Part shown: positions 5,591-56,540 of the stretch, piece by piece | How positions within the stretch are numbered: the first letter of the stretch is position 1 | Layout of the letters: every line of letters begins with the position of its first letter | NCBI GenBank assembly: GCA_951406725.2 | Contig: OX597825.1 | Span: 7,626,001-7,690,000 of the forward strand | DNA from: Octopus vulgaris | Taxonomy: Eukaryota | Length of the DNA stretch: 64,000 bases | Direction: 5' to 3' | Translations under genes and position numbers: made by a program | Notes under the pieces: generated by a model | What the model was told of the DNA's origin: nothing | The model's database searches: none | What the model saw: only the letters and a program-made list of their open reading frames with translations

Positions 5591-6368
5591 TAATAATAAT
5601 TACTGAATCTACGTAACAAATATATATTTAAAAAGAATTCTGATATACGTGTGTATATGTATATGTGTGTGTATGTGTGTGTGTGTGTGTCTGTTATATG
5701 TATAGGAGAATGAAAAATGTCTACAGGTATGTGACACGTACGTGTATTTTACAAGTGATGTGTTCTCATTCGTGAATATTTCTTCAAAAAGAACATTAGC
5801 GATGCAAACTACAATCAGAAAACTAAACTGGGTCTATGCTATTGGGAATTGCCTTTTCTCTCCATCTGTCTGTCTGTCTCTCTCTCTCTCTTTCTCCATC
5901 TCCCCTCTCTGTGTCTGTCCATCTGTGTTTCTCTATCTCTCTGTCTCTGTCTGTCTGCCTCTCTCTCTTTCTCTCTCTCTTACAGTTCCTTCCTCTCTAC
6001 ATCGCTGTCCCCATTATCTCCACGAAAATACAAACCTGCAGACCGGCCCCAACCACCTCAACCATCACCGATAGCAAATGGTTAAGATGAAGAAGCGTGA
6101 ATGAAAATTCATCCAGACGGTAGAAATTTCTTTCTACTGTCTTCAAGAATTCCGTTCGAATCTTGAAATTCATCTAAGATTTCTTTTCAACATTCTTATT
6201 TCTGATTTATTGTCATTTTTTTTCTCTTTATTCCTCAATTTTGCCTTTTCTCTTATTTTTTTTTCCTTACCAATTCTCAGTACGTGATGCAAAGCTGATA
6301 ACACTACGAGACTTCTTACCTTTGAGATAACCACAGATACATATCAGCACACTCGCACACACACACAA

Positions 6369-6436
<68 letters not shown>

Positions 6437-6559
6437 ACTCACACATACTCATATGCATTACATAGTAAGCATATTTCCAGATGATTCGCACTTTCCTATT
6501 TCTCTGTTTCGCATACACACTACCTACAAACACACTGAAGTACACACACACACCTAAAC

Positions 6560-6594
<35 letters not shown>

Positions 6595-6731
6595 ACACCT
6601 TTCAGTTGTTATATCTACCTTGCCATCCATCTATTCACAACCCGACTATTCGTCAAAATATGTATGCGGTTATACATAAGCCAAAGTAAATGATCTGCAC
6701 ACGCATATGAATATATATACACTTACACGTA

Positions 6732-6769
<38 letters not shown>

Positions 6770-6779
6770 CTGTCTTTGC

Positions 6780-6818
<39 letters not shown>

Positions 6819-7330
6819 CGTATGTGTGCGTGTGTATTATATAGGAAGCGTGTACGTATGGATGTTTATATACGGAGAACATTTTCTTGCTTTATGAAGG
6901 TTAAAGCTATCTAACGTGACTTATCTTAATCAGCTAATAACTGGCAAAAAACTTACATTGCCTTATCCTCTCTCCGTTATTACATCTCCCTATTCTATCA
7001 CGACGACGACGACCACGACGGCGACCACGAGTACCACCACTACCGCCGCCGACGCCACCGTCACAACCACGAGCACCAACGTTATCATCATTATATTTTC
7101 TCTCACCACCACCACCACTACAACATCCACCACCATCATTTTCTTCCCCATCTATCTCTTCCTATTCCTCCTCCACCATCACCGCAACCATCGCCACCAT
7201 CACCCTCACTACATTACTTTCCCCCACTCCTCAACCATTCTCTGCTATTCTGAACTTTCTGTTCTTGGATTGTTGGAGCTGGTGAAATATTTCTATCTTT
7301 TCATGGTTTCCTGGCGTCAAACAGAGAAAA

Positions 7331-7480
7331 GCGGTGAATTGGCAGAATGGATAAAGAAGGGGATGAAACGTTTTTTGGTCTTTGATCCAGTTCTTTGCAC
7401 TTGGAGATCAAATCCCACCGGGGTCATCATTACCTTTTATTCTTTCAGGGTCGATAAATAAAATACCTGCCCAGTACAGG
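7331..7480 (+). mobile_element. Degenerate SINE family A copy
   Basis: gcggtgaattggcagaa head, gagatcaaatcccacc B-box, ttctttcagggtcgataaataaaatacc central domain. Confidence 0.7.
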
Positions 7481-8990
7481 GACAATACATCTCTCTCTCT
7501 CTACCTCTCTCTCTCTCTCTCTGCCTCTTTCTTTCACTCTGCCTCTTTCTCTTTCCCTTTGACTCTCTGGAGGAAGTCATACAGTCATCAGAACTTGAGA
7601 TGTAGAAGCTCTGCCAGACTTTGATTCCAAAGGTATGCTTCAATATAGGACTTGATCAAGAGTTGAGGTCCAAACCGAAGTGTGTCAGGGAGAAAGTTTG
7701 CAGAGAACTCATTCCAGTTTCAATTCTCGGGAGAGACGCGCTGACTTAATTTATTTTATGGGGTGGCGGGGAATTGAAGCATTATATTAACCCTAAAAGA
7801 TAGGGTATTTATATCGAATAGAGAACAGTTTGCTTTGCGAAATGAAATATCAATGAATTATATTGTTACGACAATGTGGTGTAGTTGAAACTATTCAGAA
7901 ACAAAACGCAATGGAATAACAGCAGAAAATTAGAACGTTTTCTGAATGGAAAGGTTAAACGGTAAGTGAAGTGGTTTGTCATGAACTTCCATATTTATTC
8001 ATGCAACGGAGTCTTCACAACTGAAGACTGGATAACATCGAACGGTATTCGTCGTCATTCATTGAATTTACTTCAGGATATTGCTGGTATTTAGCGCCTC
8101 CGAACATATAAAAAGTCATAGGTTGAATTTGTTGGATAAAAAGGGGCAAAATAAAGTTATTTTGCGCAATTTAGGCACACGAGTGGCTGTGTGGTAAGAA
8201 GCTTGCTTTCTAAACACATAACTAGTCACGCATAAAAAAAAATATTGGTAAAAGAAAAGTTGTGATCATCATGTATATTTTTTAATCCTTGAGTATAAAG
8301 TTTTAAATTTGGCTCTTTTGGTTTCCGTTCAGAAATTCGATGGATGAGTAGGATGAAAACTTGTAATGTTCATACAGAAAAACATGGAAATGACCAAAGG
8401 AAAATGTAGGTAAAGACGTGGAAAGGTAACGATGAATAGGCATAGAGTGGTACAAGGGGAAAATGGTATGAAAACGGAGTAGTAAACCAAGGCAAACGTA
8501 GGGAAAATAATTTTGGAAGAACACAAGAAATATAGACTGGCTGTGAAGGAGTAACAGTGAAAATGTAAATAAAGACAAGAATGGATGGTCCAAGGTTAAA
8601 TATAGGATAAAGCAAGGAGAGGTCCGGTCCAAAAGTTATTGGGGAAACTAGAAAAAAAACAAAGAAAGAAATCTTAAGTGTGAATTACAAGTAGAACTGG
8701 AATGAATAAAATGTTATATCCTGTGGAAACGTCTCGAGATTTTCGTGCCAAGCAAAACATTTTAGAATAATGGCCTAGTATCTGGTCTAAGAATTTGATA
8801 TAACAAACTTCATTATTAGACTTGTAAGAATTTATTTCGAATATCAAATATAAATAAACAACGCAGAGTGAAAATTATTGGTTGGCACCGTGTTTGTTAG
8901 TCTTTAACATTCCAAACTATTTTCATTTTTTATATTTTTCCCTTCATAACTAAGGAAAATAATTTATAAGCTAAAGACTGAAAACTACTC

Positions 8991-9063
<73 letters not shown>

Positions 9064-9175
9064 CGGTTTCGATTCCCAGACCGGGCGTTGTGCGTGTTCT
9101 TGAGCGAAAACACTTAAAAGCTCCACGAGGCTCCGGCAGGGGTTGGTGATCTCTGCTGTACTCTTTCACCACACG
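9064..9175 (+). mobile_element. 5'-truncated SINE family C fragment
   Basis: ggtttcgattcccagaccgggcgttgtg...gctccacgaggctccggcagg is nearly identical to 54685-54790. Confidence 0.8.
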
Positions 9176-9229
9176 TCAGCATTTATTTCTAAATAACCAA
9201 CAGAAATGACTGAGGCGAGGTTGTGCAGA

Positions 9230-9450
9230 GGCCGTCAGATCGGACTGTTTGGCCATGTTGTTTAATTTTCCGCATTGGATCCTGGGTATGATGCTCTTTT
9301 GAGGATCGATCTGGGTTGACGGCTCCTGTTAGTTGAGCTGATGTCACAAGGTCACGGAGTATGATGGGAACAGATTGGGATACCGTTCGATGGGTTCCCG
9401 GTATAATCTGAGCAGATACCGACAAATCGTCGATGTAACGGCGCATGCCC
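9230..9450 (+). mobile_element. Degenerate RTE-clade LINE ORF C-terminal relic
   Basis: Translates RQIGLFGHVV*FSALDPGYDAL, resembling the RTE R.LR.FGHV.R....P motif; contains a stop. Confidence 0.55.
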
Positions 9451-10124
9451 ACACGGTTGACTTAAGCAGACACGAGGATCACAGCTTCTTGAGCCATTAC
9501 AAATATGTTTGTTTATACATAGCCACGCTGCCTCCGTTAACCAGTCGTCTGAAGAATCTGCAGTTTGTAACTCAGAGTGACAGTTCTAAAATCTTCCATT
9601 TTTGATAAACATACAAACTCTACATCACGTATTGAGCACTATTATTTCGTCTATTCAAAAACGATTAAATATGTACAAACGTGAAATTGGAATAAGAACT
9701 AGAATCAAAATGAACGCATAAAACATTGCATGCCTTTCCTCAGCAACACGGCGGCCCAGTGACTGAAGCTAGTGCAATAATGCGCATGTGTATATATGTA
9801 TAAATGTATGTGTGTATTTGTGTGTGTGTGTGTGTGTGTGTATCTGTGTATGTGTGTCTGCCATTTGGAAAAATGCGGGAAGGTTATATCACGGTAGCAA
9901 TCTATTTCTTGCACCAGACGTATGTAAATGGAAGGTGTAGTGGTGGTGTTGTTGGTGGTGGTGGCGGCGGCGGTGGTGGTGGTGGTGGTGGTGGCGGTGG
10001 TGGAAGTGCGACGAAGCAAACTCGTTTCTTTTTCTGTGACTTACATTCTTATCTTGTTATCTAGCAAGGCACGTGCTCTTATCTGGCAAGGCACATTAAC
10101 AAAATTTGCTAATCAAAATAATAC

Positions 10125-10214
10125 CAATAATAATAATAACGAAGATGATGATGACGACGATGATGATGATGATGATGATGATGATAATACTACTACTACT
10201 ACTACTACTACTAC

Positions 10215-10268
<54 letters not shown>

Positions 10269-10270
10269 TG

Positions 10271-10324
<54 letters not shown>

Positions 10325-10337
10325 GTAATAATAATAA
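10125..10337. repeat. Compound trinucleotide microsatellite (AAT)n(GAT)n(ACT)n(AAT)n
   Basis: Direct reading; source of the poly-N/D/T/I/L pseudo-ORFs. Confidence 0.95.
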
Positions 10338-10751
10338 TTTTCTGTGAAGGAAATGAATGAAAAATAAACAAACGTTGTTGCTGTTTTGTGGAAATATGAG
10401 AATCTCTTCCCCCAAATTGATTCTTCTTAACTACTTAATTCAGGTTTGTTTTTACACATTAACTGAAAAGATCTATGTTAATTCGTTTAATTACGGTATA
10501 TTCACAGATAGTGCTCAGTATCTAATTACGAACGAGTTGGGTCTAAGACAAATGTCTATCAGAAATAAATAAACGGGTATAATGAGTCGTACATAGTTAA
10601 CTTGTAGTAATCTTCTATATCGGTTTAAGAGATCCGTGGCTCTTAAACCGGTGTGGAAAGGGACAGTTTATAGCAGATGGCTACCACGGGTTAGATATAA
10701 AGGAACCAGAACTTGCAAACGGAACGTATTGAATATATATTTATAAAAACG

Positions 10752-11150
10752 AAGGCGACGAGCTGGCAGAAATGTTAGCACGCCAGGCGAATGCTTAGCG
10801 GTATTTCGTCTACCGCTATGTTCTGAGTTCAAATTCCGCCGAGGTCGACTTTGCCTTTCATCCTTTCGGGGTCGATTAAATAAGTACCAGTTACGCACTG
10901 GGGTCGATGTAATCCGTTTGCCTGTCCTTGTTTATCCCCTCTGTGTTTAGCCCACTGTGGGTAGTAAAGAAATAGGTATTTCATCTGCCATTACGTTCTG
11001 AGTTCAAATTCCGCCGTGGTCGACTTTGCCTTTCATCCTTTCGGTGGCGATAAATTAAGTACCAGTTACGCACTGGGGTCGATGTAATCGACTTAATCCC
11101 TTTGTCCTTGTTTGTCCCCTCTGTGTTTAGCTCCTTGTGGGCAATAAAGA
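10752..11150 (+). mobile_element. SINE family A (tRNA head plus Meta-like domain) with body duplicated in tandem; perfect 20-bp TSD
   Basis: Head ggcgacgagctggcagaa, B-box gagttcaaattc, domain gactttgcctttcatcctttcggggtcgat twice. TSD aatatatatttataaaaacg at 10732-10751 and 11151-11170. Confidence 0.9.
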
Positions 11151-11422
11151 AATATATATTTATAAAAACGTGTGTAAACAGAGGGAGAGGTAATAGAATG
11201 TGGGAGAGAGTAGGAGAGAGAGAGGGTGGAGAGATAGAGAGGGAGAGATAGATAGAGAGTGATGGAGCAAAAGTGGAAGGAAGAAGAGAGAGGGACGAGG
11301 AACGGAGAAGTGGAGATATTTTCATGGTTTATAGATTTTTTTGTAGGACTTTCTGTGTTCATTTGAGTGAGTCTAGATGTGTATTAGTGCTTTGTTTTCT
11401 TTGTCACTGAAAATACTCTAAA

Positions 11423-11454
<32 letters not shown>

Positions 11455-11770
11455 CAATGACTGTCTACTTTGCAACCCAGCATAACCTCTTCCGTTCCCT
11501 CTTTTGCCTTTTTAATGACATACCTCTCATGATAAGTAGTCAAGCCTCCGCCTCTTTAACATTATAAAACAAAGCTACTCAGATAACGAATAGCACCGCC
11601 CCACACACGCACTGCCTGAGTTTATACGTCATCTGACAAGCTTTGTATTTCACCCCACAGGCGCTATTACAAAACCATATTCTATACCAAACACACTTGT
11701 TCGGGTTGTCAGGTTTGCCACTGACGGCCCAACCATGGACAGGTTGTACTAGTATACAATAGCGACTGTA

Positions 11771-12370
11771 GACGGCGAGCTGGCAGAAACGTTAGCACGC
11801 CGCGCGAAACGCGCGGACGTATTTCCTCTGCCGTTACGTTCCGAGTTCAAATTCCGCCGAGGTCGACTTTGCCTTTCATCCTTTCGGGGTCGATAAATAA
11901 AGTACCAGTTTCGCACTGGGGTCGATGTAATCGACTTAATCCCTTTGTCTGTCCTTGTTTGTCCTCTCTGTGTTTAACCCCTTGTGGGTAGTAAAGAAAT
12001 AAGTATTTCGTCTGCCGCTACGTTCTGAGTTCAAATTCCGCCGAGGTCGACTTTGCCTTCCATCCTTTCGGGGTCGATAAATAAAGTACCAGTTTCGCAC
12101 TGGGGTCGATGTAATCGACTTAATCCCTTTGTCTGTCCTTGTTTGTCCTCTCTGTGTTTAACCCCTTGTGGGTAGTAAAGAAATAAGTATTTCGTCTGCC
12201 GCTACGTTCTGAGTTCAAATTCCGCCGAGGTCGACTTTGCCTTCCATCCTTTCGGGGTCGATAAATAAAGTACCAGTTTCGCACTGGGGTCGATGTAATC
12301 GACTTAATCTCTTTGTCTGTCCTTGTTTGTTCCCCTCTATGTTTAGCCCCTTGTGGGCAGTAAAGAAATA
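11771..12370 (+). mobile_element. SINE family A: one head plus three tandem 184-bp body units
   Basis: Units start at 11821, 12005 and 12189. Flanked by imperfect direct repeat tatacaatagcgactgtaga / tatacattaccgactataga (11753 / 12371). Confidence 0.9.
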
Positions 12371-13036: not shown

Positions 13037-13325
13037 TATACACACACAGACACACACATAGCTATGGTGATGCAAACAGAACAAATAAAACTCAAAATAT
13101 GCGTATATCTATAATTTTAATAATGTTTAGCAGAAGCAACAGAGTGCCTCTAAGGCCGAGAATTTCGCGCATTGGCCCATATCAGTCTAGTCACAGATCG
13201 AAGAGATGTGGATTTATATACCCTGTACTTATATATAGCTCTATTTGCTTATTGACCTTCATAACTGGTAAACTATTTGAAAAATACGAATTATACAATT
13301 GTCATTGTAATTGCTTTTTAAAATT

Positions 13326-13711
13326 CGTAAAGTATACTAGCCATCTCAACATGGCTAACCACTAAGGGTGGGTGTTACTGTAGCTTTTAGCCCCAGGAGA
13401 TCATCGTCTCCAGCTGGCTTTAGGAACACTTTCTGTGCCCTTATGGTATTTGCAAAGGGAGGTCATCCTTCTCTCGTCAACCTAAGTGATACGCACGGAC
13501 TGCAGTTTCTAGAAGGCAAATACCTAGAAACTGCAGTCCGTGCGTATCACTTAGGTTGACGAGGGAAGGATGACCTCCCTTTGCAAATACTGATAGGACA
13601 CAGAAAGTGTGTCAATAGCCAGCTGGAGACGATGATCTCCTGGGGCTAAAAGCTACAGTAACACCCACCCTTAGTGGTTAGCCATATTGAGATGGCTGAG
13701 TATACCTTACG
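13326..13711. mobile_element. 386-bp foldback (palindromic) element, MITE-like, superfamily unassigned
   Basis: Arms 13326-13512 and 13524-13711 are inverted repeats with about 13 differences and an 11-nt spacer; no TSD seen; further copies at 19822 and 56041. Confidence 0.85.
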
Positions 13712-13859
13712 TTGTCGAGTGGTTACTGTTTACATCTCGTTCAGAGATTTATTGTTGCTTTTTAATATTCGTTCTAGATTAATCCAGTGAAATATAATTT
13801 TTCATCAGCTTTGTAAGCCCACCTCTCTTCGATTTTATTCCTCTCCTAATGATATTTAA

Positions 13860-16099: not shown

Positions 16100-17260
16100 A
16101 GAGAGGGAGAAAAGAGAGTATTGGTCAGTATTCTGGTATGTAAGACATTTCTTTGTTGATGTGTTGCTGCTAAAATGTGCCATCGGCAAATCAATATAAA
16201 GGGAAGATCGTAGAATTTGGTTATTTTTCTGCCGTCCGTTTGTCTATATATTGACTGAGTCCTATTGGTCTGTACTCCAGTATTCGAATATGTAATCTAT
16301 GCAGAGTCACGCGTTGCCTTAAGCACATACCAGTTTGCCCTATATAGTTCCTTCACATCCTAAGCATGTTACTGCATAAATTAGGTTTTCAGCTGCACAG
16401 ACAAAGTTATTTCTATTTTGAAGTGTTGCCACTTTTTAAATGTTTCTCTTATCTTTCTGACAGATTTTAGCAGATGCCTTTTATTTACTTTTGGTTCTGT
16501 TGTCATTGTGTGGTATTTGGCCTTCGTTAGTATTTTCTCTTTGCTTTTGACTGTTGTTTTTTTATATTTTGTATTGTGTCATGCATTTGAATATTTTGCT
16601 TCACCATGGAGTCTTTTTTCTGTGTTGGCACGTCTTGAAATATGTTGTAGACCTCGTTGTTTTTTTTAGATTACAGGTAAATCATTCAATTCTGTTATAT
16701 TTCTTTGTTTCATTTGTCTTAGTGCCCGGATATATATTTTCTTGGTTCTTTGTATTCTGTTATCGATTAATTCCTTAAGTATATAATTCCTTAAGTTCTT
16801 GGTGTTTTATATTACGGATGTTTTCATCGGATAGAATTGCGCAGACCAGTTTGGCAACGTTATAAGGGATGCATTTCGAATAGAACGTATTAAAAGGTAG
16901 GTAGTCCTCTGGGGCTTAGGTATATAGCAAATGCTAGTCTCAATTGGGTTGTTGACTTCCTTTATCAGGATGTAAAAAGAAATAAATTATAGTCTTGACT
17001 GTACTCCATAGTAAATTAAAAATGCTCGTAAATTCTATCCAGTAATGTTTTGAATTAATTTTGTTCCTCTATGAGTTCGTTTCATAAAATGAAGCAATCG
17101 TCATCCAATTTACCGTAATCAAATATACAAAGAACGAGGCTGGTTTCATCCCCATTGCGGTCCGAGATTTTTGTCAATAAAAAGTTCTTTTTTAAAAACT
17201 CTAATATTTAGAATGAATTTTAGTTTTTCTGTCCTTACTTCCTTCTCTATGCGTTGCAGG
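16100..17260 (-). mobile_element. Degenerate Penelope-like element (RT C-terminal part plus GIY-YIG endonuclease)
   Basis: Minus strand with frameshifts: TAMG (~17150), LDDDCFIL (~17100), IPYNVAKLVCAILSD (~16850), NLIYAVTCLGC...NYIGQTG..LRQRVTLHR (~16290-16390). Confidence 0.8.
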
Positions 17261-18620: not shown

Positions 18621-19821
18621 TATTATTGATAAATATTGAATGCATTTCTCCCCAAACTCATTTTCTTGCCAAACGTTTACAAAATATAATTTACACGTTT
18701 ATCAAAATAGAGTGAACTTCTATTTTATCTCTCGTCGCCCTAATCTAAGGCATTAAAGGAAACAAAAAGCATTTTAGAAATAGAACTTATTTAGATAAAA
18801 ATGAAATTACATTTTGAAAATAGTAAATTGCATTTCTTTATAAGATAAATTTTAAATATTTTTTTATGTACGAAAACTCCTTTATATCACTGAGCCGTGT
18901 GGTTCGGTAGTGGTGGTGGTGGTGATGGAGGTGGTGGTGGGGTTATTACAGAAATTAACTTAGAATGTATGATGTCCCCTACGTTGGCCACGTGAAGACT
19001 TAGGGAAATATTTGTAAAACGATTAAACTACATCACAAAACTGTTTTCGCTCTTCCAAATATTTTTAACTCTCTCAAAAAATGTTGACGTTAATAAATTA
19101 CGTTGGATTTAATGAGCTGAATTAATAGGGTGCTGTAGGATCAACTTAATAGCTTACAGCAACAACAACAACAACAACACTGATAACAGCAGATATGGTA
19201 GTAGCAACGAAAATACAAGATCACCATTGCTCCATCAATTGGCAAGATTAGTACAAGATGGTGGCAGCTATCATATTACGTTGTGGTTCAGCTAATTCAT
19301 TGGTCAAATTAGATTAGATATGCTAATTAACAAAATATTCACTATTACGTTGTTGTTGTTTTTTTTTCTAACGTCAATGGCTTCCCCTCTTTTCTTCATT
19401 TCTTTGTCTTCCTTTTTCGGCGCCATTTCCTTTGTCTTCCAATTTGTTTACTTCTCGTTAGGATACAACATAGAACATGGCCTATTCAAACCTATATTTG
19501 CTGCTCTCTCTCTCTCTCTATCTATCTATATCTCTTCCCATCTATCAGCTACAGCGATCGACACAAAACTTGCTTATACACTTAAAGACACCAACTACCT
19601 CAATCTCCGCCACAATCGCACTTCAAACACGATCAACATAAAAGAGATAATGAAGACATTTACGAGATCCCTCGCTCTGCTAAAAATAATAGCAAACACT
19701 ATCGGAGTTCACCTTACCATTTAAAAAACAGGAAGGCCACATTGGACGCTGTTCTCCTGACCACATTATTTAAAAAACTGAAGAAATGGTCATTCTTTCT
19801 ACTCAACAAATTATTTTATAT

Positions 19822-19965
19822 CAACGTAAAGTATACTAGCCATCTCAATATGGCTAACCACTAAGGGTGAGTGTTACTGTAGCTTGTAGCCCCAGGAGGT
19901 CATCGTCTCCAGCTGGCTTTAGACACACTTTCTGTGCCCTTATGATATTTGCAAAGGGAGGTCAT
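19822..19965. mobile_element. Single truncated arm of the 13326 foldback element
   Basis: Near-identical to 13326-13466; shares left-arm diagnostic bases (ggcttta, gcccttatg). Confidence 0.9.
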
Positions 19966-20384
19966 ATTATTTTATATCATTCTTCGAAATATTCGATTTG
20001 TTTTTGAGGATGTAAATATTTCATTTGTATAATGTCATACTTTTTCCCGTTGGCATTGGTCAGAAGCTAAGCGAAAACAGCGCAGCAGGAAGGAAATTCT
20101 ATGATTAGTTTGCAGGAAATTGTAGCTACAACACCTTCGCATCTCAGCCGACATTGTAAAAATATAAACAGGAGGACGTATAGGTCGTTGGAGTCCTAAG
20201 ATTCTTCTGGAGAGACGGGGTGGTCACGTGTGGACCGCCTTTGATTATACTGCTGTTCAATAAGAGTTATGTTTGGACAACTACAACAGTGATAAACCAC
20301 AATTGCCACCACTTTGTCTACTATCACCACAACAACCACAGCCTTTGAGTTTCCAATTGCAGTCACTGCTACTGAGGCTGCTGC

Positions 20385-40749: not shown

Positions 40750-40941
40750 TGGCGCAGGAGTGGCTGTGTGGTAAGTAGCTTGCTTACCAGCCACATGGTT
40801 CCGGCTTCAGTCCCACTGCGTGGCCCCTTGAGTAAGTGTCTTTTACTATAGCCTCGGGTCGACCAAAGCCTTGTGAGTGGATTTGGTAGACGGAAACTGA
40901 AAGAAGCCCGTTGTATATATATATATATATATATGTGTGTG

Positions 40942-40993
<52 letters not shown>

Positions 40994-41195
40994 TGATTGT
41001 GTTTGTCCCACCAACATCGCTTGGCAACCGACGGCGGTGCGTTTATGTCCCCCTAACTTAGCAGTTCGGCAAAAAGAGACCGATAGAATAAGTACTAGGG
41101 CTACAAAGAATAAGTCCTGGTGTCGATTTGTTCGACTAAAAGCGGTGCTCCAGCATGGCCGCAGTCAAATGACTGAAAGAGGTTAAAGAATAAAA
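40750..41195 (+). mobile_element. SINE family B, full length, with internal (TA)n(TG)n
   Basis: ggcgcaggagtggctgtgtggtaag head; colinear with 2451-2893. Confidence 0.9.
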
Positions 41196-55979: not shown

Positions 55980-56178
55980 CCTTGTGAGTGAATTTGGTAG
56001 ACGGCCAGTGAAAGAAGCCCATCGTGGGGGTATTTGTGTCCCCTTCGTAAATATATAAGGACATAGGAAATGTGTTAAGGCGCCGACAGGAAGCGTCGAT
56101 GCTTCCTAGGGCTAAACAGCGGTGGTGTAATTCCCTTACAGGACTGTCATGTTAAGTTGACAGTATACAACCACTATA

Positions 56179-56209
<31 letters not shown>

Positions 56210-56211
56210 TC

Positions 56212-56259
<48 letters not shown>

Positions 56260-56540
56260 GTATGTATATATATATATGTGTGTGTGTGTTTGTGTGTGTG
56301 TATACATACACGCTCTTGTGTGCCTTTGTCCCCCCGTTTGTTCCCCCACCACTGCTTTATAAACGGTGTCGATGTGTTTACATACGCGTAACTTAGTGGT
56401 TCGACAAAAGCGTCCGATAGAGTAGGTACCAGGCTTTAAAAACAATTAAGTTCTGGGAGTAGATTCGTTCGACTACAATTCCTCCAGGGCGATGCCCCAT
56501 CATGACCGCAGTCACATGACCGAGACAATAAAAATGAAAG
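55980..56540 (+). mobile_element. Headless SINE family B interrupted by the 56041 element and (TA)n
   Basis: cttgtgagtgaatttggtagacgg...aaagaagccc at 55980; 3' half at 56320-56540. Confidence 0.75.
56041..56170 (+). mobile_element. Diverged homologue of the foldback-element arm with conserved hairpins
   Basis: Colinear with 13577-13705: ccctt.g.aaata, aggaca.ag.aa.tgtgt, tcct.gggctaaa, ccctta, agtatac. Confidence 0.65.

Follow-up and report, generated by a model that had tools for sequence, protein, structure and literature searches.

Non-LTR retrozymes have been described in corals, mussels and salamanders, with repeats of ~350–390 bp in mussels and of 330 or 350 bp in the axolotl (Cervera and de la Pena, 2020; PMC7229834); neither octopus nor cephalopod is mentioned in the main text of that paper. 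Retrozymes have been proposed to be derivatives of Penelope-like elements (PLEs) in a study of Xenopus (bioRxiv 10.64898/2026.07.22.740005). For PLEs themselves, a tail at one end, inverted 5′ arms and partial tandems have been described (PMC8557442), and in the only PLE examined in vitro, from Anolis, the reverse transcriptase (RT) initiates at two internal positions downstream of the hammerhead, which define the tail, and it needs the surrounding RNA (Frangieh et al., 2024; PMC11167929). In the text available, these papers settle neither the mobilisation of animal retrozymes nor the RNA feature that a PLE RT recognises (PMC7229834; PMC11167929; bioRxiv 10.64898/2026.07.22.740005). A recent repeat annotation of the octopus assigns 6.8% of the genome to PLEs, and hammerheads are not mentioned in its main text or in one supplement (PMC13282606). 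The class of element reported here, the non-LTR retrozyme, is thus already known; in the literature we found no description of this retrozyme family or of its fold, and its copies may be annotated in Repbase or Dfam as PLE or unknown.

Three insertions of this element were mapped in the window, a stretch of 64,000 nt from Octopus vulgaris. The first, at 56026..56175 (+ strand), is a 5′-truncated copy of family A that lacks the hammerhead, stops at the position called here 3′ end 1 and has no tail. It was inserted at the edge of the (TA)n tract of a host repeat, which we take to be SINE-like; the left part of this repeat lies at 55980..56025 (+ strand), the (TA)n target and the right part at 56176..56528 (+ strand), and both parts are present in an uninterrupted relative at 40869-41176. 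The second insertion is a family-B foldback whose left arm (13327..13512, − strand) stops at end 1 without a tail. Its right arm (13514..13756, + strand) carries the 3′ half of a hammerhead at 13514-13546 (GAAA at 13527-13530, a palindromic helix III and a predicted cut after 13538), followed by the hairpin module and a tail of ~50 nt that runs to 3′ end 2. The foldback is enclosed by target-site duplications of 16 nt with one mismatch, at 13313..13328 and 13757..13772 (both + strand). The third, previously placed at 19822, is a 5′-truncated family-B copy at 19824..19965 (− strand) that stops at end 1 and is flanked by an exact 14-nt duplication (19810-19823 and 19966-19979). The window also holds a frameshifted remnant of a PLE ORF, from the thumb to the GIY-YIG domain, at 16122-17102 on the − strand (tblastn E 1e-19), which is separate from the modules at 13327-13756 and 19824-19965.

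The initial annotation had drawn attention to three hairpins in the 56041 copy, and to the colinearity of 56041-56170 with 13577-13705 at about two-thirds identity. Both observations were borne out: the hairpins lie where they had been placed, 91 of 137 aligned columns are identical (66%), and the alignment scores 77 (nhmmer E 3e-5), where 1000 dinucleotide shuffles averaged 22.9 and never scored above 45. When further copies were compared, a body of four helices emerged. P1 (the former hairpin 1; 56060..56076, + strand) is a hairpin of 5–6 bp with 88% of alignment cells paired. P2 (56082..56112, + strand) consists of a basal stem (56082-56084/56110-56112), an internal loop and an upper stem (56088-56094/56101-56107, the former hairpin 2), and by sequence comparison is the best-supported helix of the module. 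P3 (56132..56143, + strand), a short hairpin that holds CCCTTA and was absent from the initial annotation, is on the same comparison the weakest, with 78% of cells paired. P4 (the former hairpin 3; 56143..56164, + strand) lies 12–24 nt before 3′ end 1 of the insertions, and the tail between the two 3′ ends contains one further small hairpin. The segments previously regarded as invariant linkers vary, and in part they are stems: GGGCTAAA is found in 31, CCCTTA in 24 and AGTATAC in 11 of 64 aligned copies, GGGCT forms the 3′ strand of the basal stem under hairpin 2 (98% of cells paired), and CCCTTA belongs to the fourth small hairpin before hairpin 3. The suggested closure of a multibranch fold by UAAGG/CCUUA would be possible in only 10 of the 64 copies.

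The element is abundant. A degenerate pattern of the central stem had 12,466 exact matches in the 2.8 Gb genome, and its reversed control had none; 2017 first-look candidates were obtained for family A, of which the best 40 scored showed 93–96% identity over the full query, and 2996 for family B. Five module matches were present at three loci in 400 kb sampled at fixed positions. At 87% identity, 165 distinct near-full modules fell into 30 clusters, 17 of them singletons and some consisting just of damaged copies, and the main clades of the module are 45–60% alike. A very diverged subfamily, 41–56% alike to the others and inserted as a foldback (L195:700-1040), keeps P1, P2 and P4 in different letters, with P3 not clear. 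One family-A foldback (L010:852-1439, − strand) directly adjoins an exon encoding KIWFQNHRYK, which is presumably homeobox-like. Three organisms are listed as holders of family A, and contigs of sequencing runs guessed to be RNA cover the retrozyme unit, with no holder recorded as RNA. A scan of metagenomes gave 11 matches, none of which reached past the search pattern, and these were taken as chance.

Fuller copies extend upstream of the module into a type I hammerhead motif composed of stem I, CUGANGA, a short stem II of 4–5 bp, GAAA, a palindromic helix III and a UH cut site. Of 148 distinct modules, 59 have a match to a purpose-made descriptor of this motif in the 110 nt upstream, compared with 15 of 7200 control windows. 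The strict CUGANGA core is present in 38 of the 59 matches and changed in 21, and many of the modules with no match are visibly 5′-truncated or inverted upstream. The assignment rests on this descriptor, since Rfam found no hammerhead family at the seven loci searched. Stems I and II and the palindromic helix III vary between subfamilies with their pairing preserved, and the predicted cut lies 165–177 nt from the module's end. Units recur in tandem with a period of 334–368 nt (one further unit, with a deletion, has 303 nt), in arrays of at least seven units at locus L060; no long ORF belongs to the unit, and no ORF with RT and GIY-YIG domains lies within it. In the family-B tandem units of L034, L036 and L052 the hammerhead core differs within one insertion, with CUGA, CCGA and UUGA starts, which suggests that arrays are mixed or that the core covaries as in the U3-A8 variant of PMC4209133.

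In this anatomy the octopus family resembles the metazoan non-LTR retrozymes: non-coding tandem units, here of 334–368 nt, with a type I hammerhead motif and a short palindromic helix III in each unit, a GC content below 50%, duplications of more than 4 bp and PLEs in the same genome (PMC7229834). Like the retrozymes of Xenopus, it comprises hammerhead monomers, dimers and multimers that co-occur with PLEs (bioRxiv 10.64898/2026.07.22.740005). Its helix II of 4–5 bp differs from the longer one of minimal PLE hammerheads (PMC4209133); expression as circles and self-cleavage, as in the retrozymes of PMC7229834, are predictions for the octopus family. With high confidence, the element can be regarded as a PLE-type non-LTR retrozyme.

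The insertions bear the signature of PLEs. When 194 copies were mapped, 73 ended at +12..+24 after P4 (end 1) and 74 at +54..+81 (end 2); 25 read through into the next unit, six ended between the two sites, and 16 ended earlier, which probably reflects a poor fit to the reference copy. In the sequencing run X15, contigs stop at two positions separated by 54 nt. Of 112 insertions, 41 were set aside because of microsatellite flanks; 28 of the remaining 71 have target duplications of 9–17 nt, compared with 2% of mismatched pairs. The flanks are AT-rich, and TATATA occurs within 20 nt of 60 of 169 ends (background, 6.6%). Head-to-head foldbacks make up 43 of 122 insertions and single-orientation copies the other 79; of the 43 foldbacks, 38 have the tail on exactly one arm, where independence of the arms would allow at most one half (p 1e-7). 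The 5′ ends vary between copies and the inverted arms have no fixed centre. The copies of this retrozyme thus have two internal stopping points, like those of a PLE, instead of stopping at the hammerhead cut.

The 5′ truncation, partial tandems, inverted 5′ arms and AT-rich or (TA)n targets of the octopus copies are all shared with PLEs (PMC11167929; PMC8557442). The order of parts is also that of the pseudo-LTR (pLTR) of the Anolis Poseidon element PAc, in which two internal 3′ ends lie beyond a hammerhead and mark off a tail that may be present or absent (Frangieh et al., 2024; PMC11167929). Unlike PAc, the octopus retrozyme has no ORF, and no homologous autonomous pLTR was found among the sampled PLEs. 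The distance from the predicted cut to the first end is 165–177 nt in the retrozyme and 85–92 nt in PAc by the coordinates of PMC11167929, and the tail of ~50 nt compares with 30–40 nt reported for PLEs (PMC8557442). Where PMC7229834 gives minimum-energy folds, the octopus family provides a four-helix body obtained by subfamily comparison and ends mapped to two internal sites; the available text of the Xenopus preprint (bioRxiv 10.64898/2026.07.22.740005) contains no analysis of insertion ends or of a body fold.

As the module ends where the insertions end, it is likely the site at which a PLE RT recognises the RNA and starts. A recognition signal for RT, one of the functions proposed in the initial annotation for a folded element, fits the ends, the fold conservation and the tail data; the other functions it named, an unknown ribozyme and a transposase or ssDNA signal, do not fit, as set out below. 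We think it probable that the hairpins, as the conserved folded body of a non-LTR retrozyme, serve as an RNA handle to which a PLE protein attaches before reverse transcription begins just downstream. The tandem units would be transcribed on the + strand, as the G-U bias described below suggests, and their hammerheads, by analogy with known retrozymes with a palindromic helix III, would cut as dimers to give monomers or circles; cutting as dimers has been described for hammerheads with a short palindromic helix III (PMC4209133). A PLE protein with RT and GIY-YIG domains would then bind P1–P4 and the tail hairpin, and introduce nicks, 9–17 nt apart, into the two strands of AT-rich or (TA)n DNA. 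The cDNA would be primed inside the RNA at end 1, 12–24 nt after P4, or at end 2, ~50 nt further. Where synthesis terminated early, a 5′-truncated copy like 56026-56175 would be left; where both nicks served as primers, each at a different site, the product would be a foldback tailed on one arm. A more specific version, which we put forward as tentative, is that P1–P4 and the tail hairpin form a compact, telomerase-RNA-like template-positioning domain for the PLE RT, setting the two internal start sites. A protein dimer would use one start site for each nicked strand, so that foldbacks would be tailed on exactly one arm.

Candidate proteins are encoded in the same genome, which holds several PLE families with intact ORFs for RT and GIY-YIG; the clade labels used here come from motifs and not from a tree. 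One family has a 781-aa ORF with a Zn-finger linker and is of Neptune type by the description in PMC8557442, a second is a further GIY-YIG family, and a third has an intact 899-aa ORF with Hydra-like motifs. An older Hydra-like family was sampled as well. The terminal repeats of the sampled families have hammerhead motifs of their own. Copies of the Neptune-type family (L091–L097, L109, L110) are up to 99% alike, so that the family is apparently young; they show an upstream open frame of 360–480 aa, a terminal repeat of 500 nt with a minimal hammerhead motif, and a 40-nt tail with a small CTC/GAG hairpin that resembles that of the retrozyme tail, although the tail profile gave it no score. The 899-aa family, also apparently young, is represented by L282 (G000:C1:119513000-119522900), with a C-terminal GIY-YIG domain, 3.6 kb tandems and ~20 further matches; a hammerhead motif with a long helix II is followed there by a structured stretch of ~225 nt. 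In the older Hydra-like family (L302–L331, 3′ of the GIY-YIG match) the terminal repeat carries a hammerhead motif, and two 3′ ends ~50 nt apart can be discerned by eye, a tail length near that of the retrozyme. Another abundant repeat of ~200 nt, with a minimal hammerhead motif and ending in (TA)n (L116, L117, L230, L263, L329), is probably a fragment or non-autonomous derivative of another PLE.

The extension of the search to an autonomous partner ORF yielded no PLE with the module in its terminal repeats among the sampled loci (L061–L110, L221–L270 and L282–L331; profile and covariance-model searches), and no PLE tail in the sampled families matched the tail profile. The inspected modules that lie near PLE fragments are separate insertions. 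In Xenopus, 24 of 57 families matched annotated transposable elements, nearly all of them PLEs (bioRxiv 10.64898/2026.07.22.740005), in contrast to the octopus family, which matched no sampled PLE. The partner may be unsampled, since each protein search scored just 150 of 6,000–12,000 candidates; it may also be extinct, or recognise a shape without shared sequence.

The alternative with the best claim to consideration, which we judge unlikely but by no means negligible, accepts the same retrozyme and supposes that the fold is kept for reasons at the RNA level, such as stability of the circle, folding of the hammerhead, or transcription and export, and that the PLE protein reads only the tail and the start sites. 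The sampled autonomous PLEs are in its favour, as they also show fixed 3′ ends and tails without the module, and PLE proteins can thus work without it; known retrozyme circles, moreover, are highly self-paired (PMC7229834). This supposition has to accommodate a number and order of helices, an internal loop in P2 and a spacing from cut to end 1 that are fixed across clades only 45–60% alike, and such a layout is more specific than a general requirement for stability would demand. Single copies also fold only modestly better than shuffles: the 56041 copy has a z of −1.8 on the + strand and −2.3 on the − strand, and the support for the fold is consequently comparative and not thermodynamic.

A second alternative is that the covariation is an artefact of shared ancestry and of an alignment fitted to the structure, and that the hairpins are neutral leftovers. 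A covariance model aligned 74 copies, of which 64 rows were kept and 10 were dropped for large deletions or non-homologous ends. In the 74-copy alignment 89.7% of cells pair, against 34–60% for slid partners, counts that lean towards the structure because the model fitted the alignment to it. The alignment-wide, tree-aware covariation test on the 64 rows gave no pair at E<0.05; the best values were 0.17 and 0.18, and pairs of the structure ranked 1, 2 and 4. The covariation previously read in hairpin 1 also dissolves, as the difference at 56060-56076 consists of two private mutations and the other family-A copies compared match the family-B stem; the differences between families A and B in hairpins 2 and 3 are real two-sided changes. 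The alignment-wide result, the private mutations and the fitted alignment speak for the artefact.

A test at the level of branches speaks against it. On internal branches, defined as those with three or more tips, 7.75 two-sided changes keep the pair, against 1.15 in a rate-matched null whose maximum was 5 in 1000 replicates, so that none of the 1000 reached the observed value; the pair is kept in 76% of internal-branch changes, against 38% in the null. On the tip branches, which represent decaying copies, 58 of 103 changes break the pair. One-sided changes show the same division, with 11.0 G-U against 2.0 A-C on internal branches and 32.5 against 31.6 on the tips, a bias that upholds the earlier reading of G-U pairs on the + strand. 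About six of the about eight internal two-sided changes fall in P2; P1 and P4 have none on internal branches and draw their support from one-sided changes and singleton subfamilies. On a plain MAFFT alignment, RNAalifold recovered P2 and P4 with two-sided changes, but not P1 or P3. Its alternative long-range GGAC/GUCC pairing is not among the top covarying pairs and was not adopted. Pair keeping and a G-U bias confined to internal branches thus make it likely that the fold has been under selection as + strand RNA in amplifying lineages, and an artefact is accordingly improbable. By the branch-level comparison of sequences, the + strand fold is kept across many subfamilies, mostly through hairpin 2.

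Less probable still is a second ribozyme or a ligase in the module, distinct from the hammerhead and serving, for instance, to close the circle. A few unpaired or loop positions of the module are near invariant, and no Rfam family matches it: at gathering thresholds there were no matches within the window, and by E-value, at seven loci, there were sub-threshold miRNA-type matches on foldbacks and microsatellites and one tRNA match outside the module. Against such a function, cleavage is already explained by the hammerhead, the helices are simple and arranged in series with no supported long-range pair, and the supposed invariant linkers vary. The element's ribozyme is likely an ordinary type I hammerhead upstream of the module, and not the module itself as the initial annotation had considered; it could not be seen there, since truncation has removed it from the 56041 copy and 13514-13546 retains no more than its 3′ half.

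Foldback DNA transposons and MITEs have long inverted arms with flanking duplication. The octopus foldbacks share both features, and in 43 of 122 insertions a target duplication encloses long inverted repeats, but a DNA element (foldback transposon, MITE or Helitron-like) with ssDNA or transposase signals as hairpins is scarcely credible and is largely refuted by the variable 5′ truncation, the fixed 3′ ends, the hammerhead motif and the G-U bias of one strand, to which the single-orientation and tandem copies and the duplications of 9–17 nt can be added. Unlike those transposons, the octopus foldbacks have unequal arms without a fixed centre, built from 5′-truncated sense copies and tailed on one side, and 79 of 122 insertions are not inverted, so that fixed terminal inverted repeats are not found at both ends of every copy. 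What had been called a foldback family is instead a by-product of PLE-type insertion, with 5′-truncated inverted arms inside a target duplication.

The octopus family provides genome-scale evidence for retrozyme copies that end at two internal sites. It offers a short RNA with natural compensatory variants, together with intact candidate PLE proteins in the same genome, and is thereby testable in vitro. If the telomerase-RNA-like reading is true, the RNA element by which retrozymes hijack PLEs would have a structure model derived by comparison, and this element would have persisted through a long radiation without being shared by any sampled autonomous PLE.
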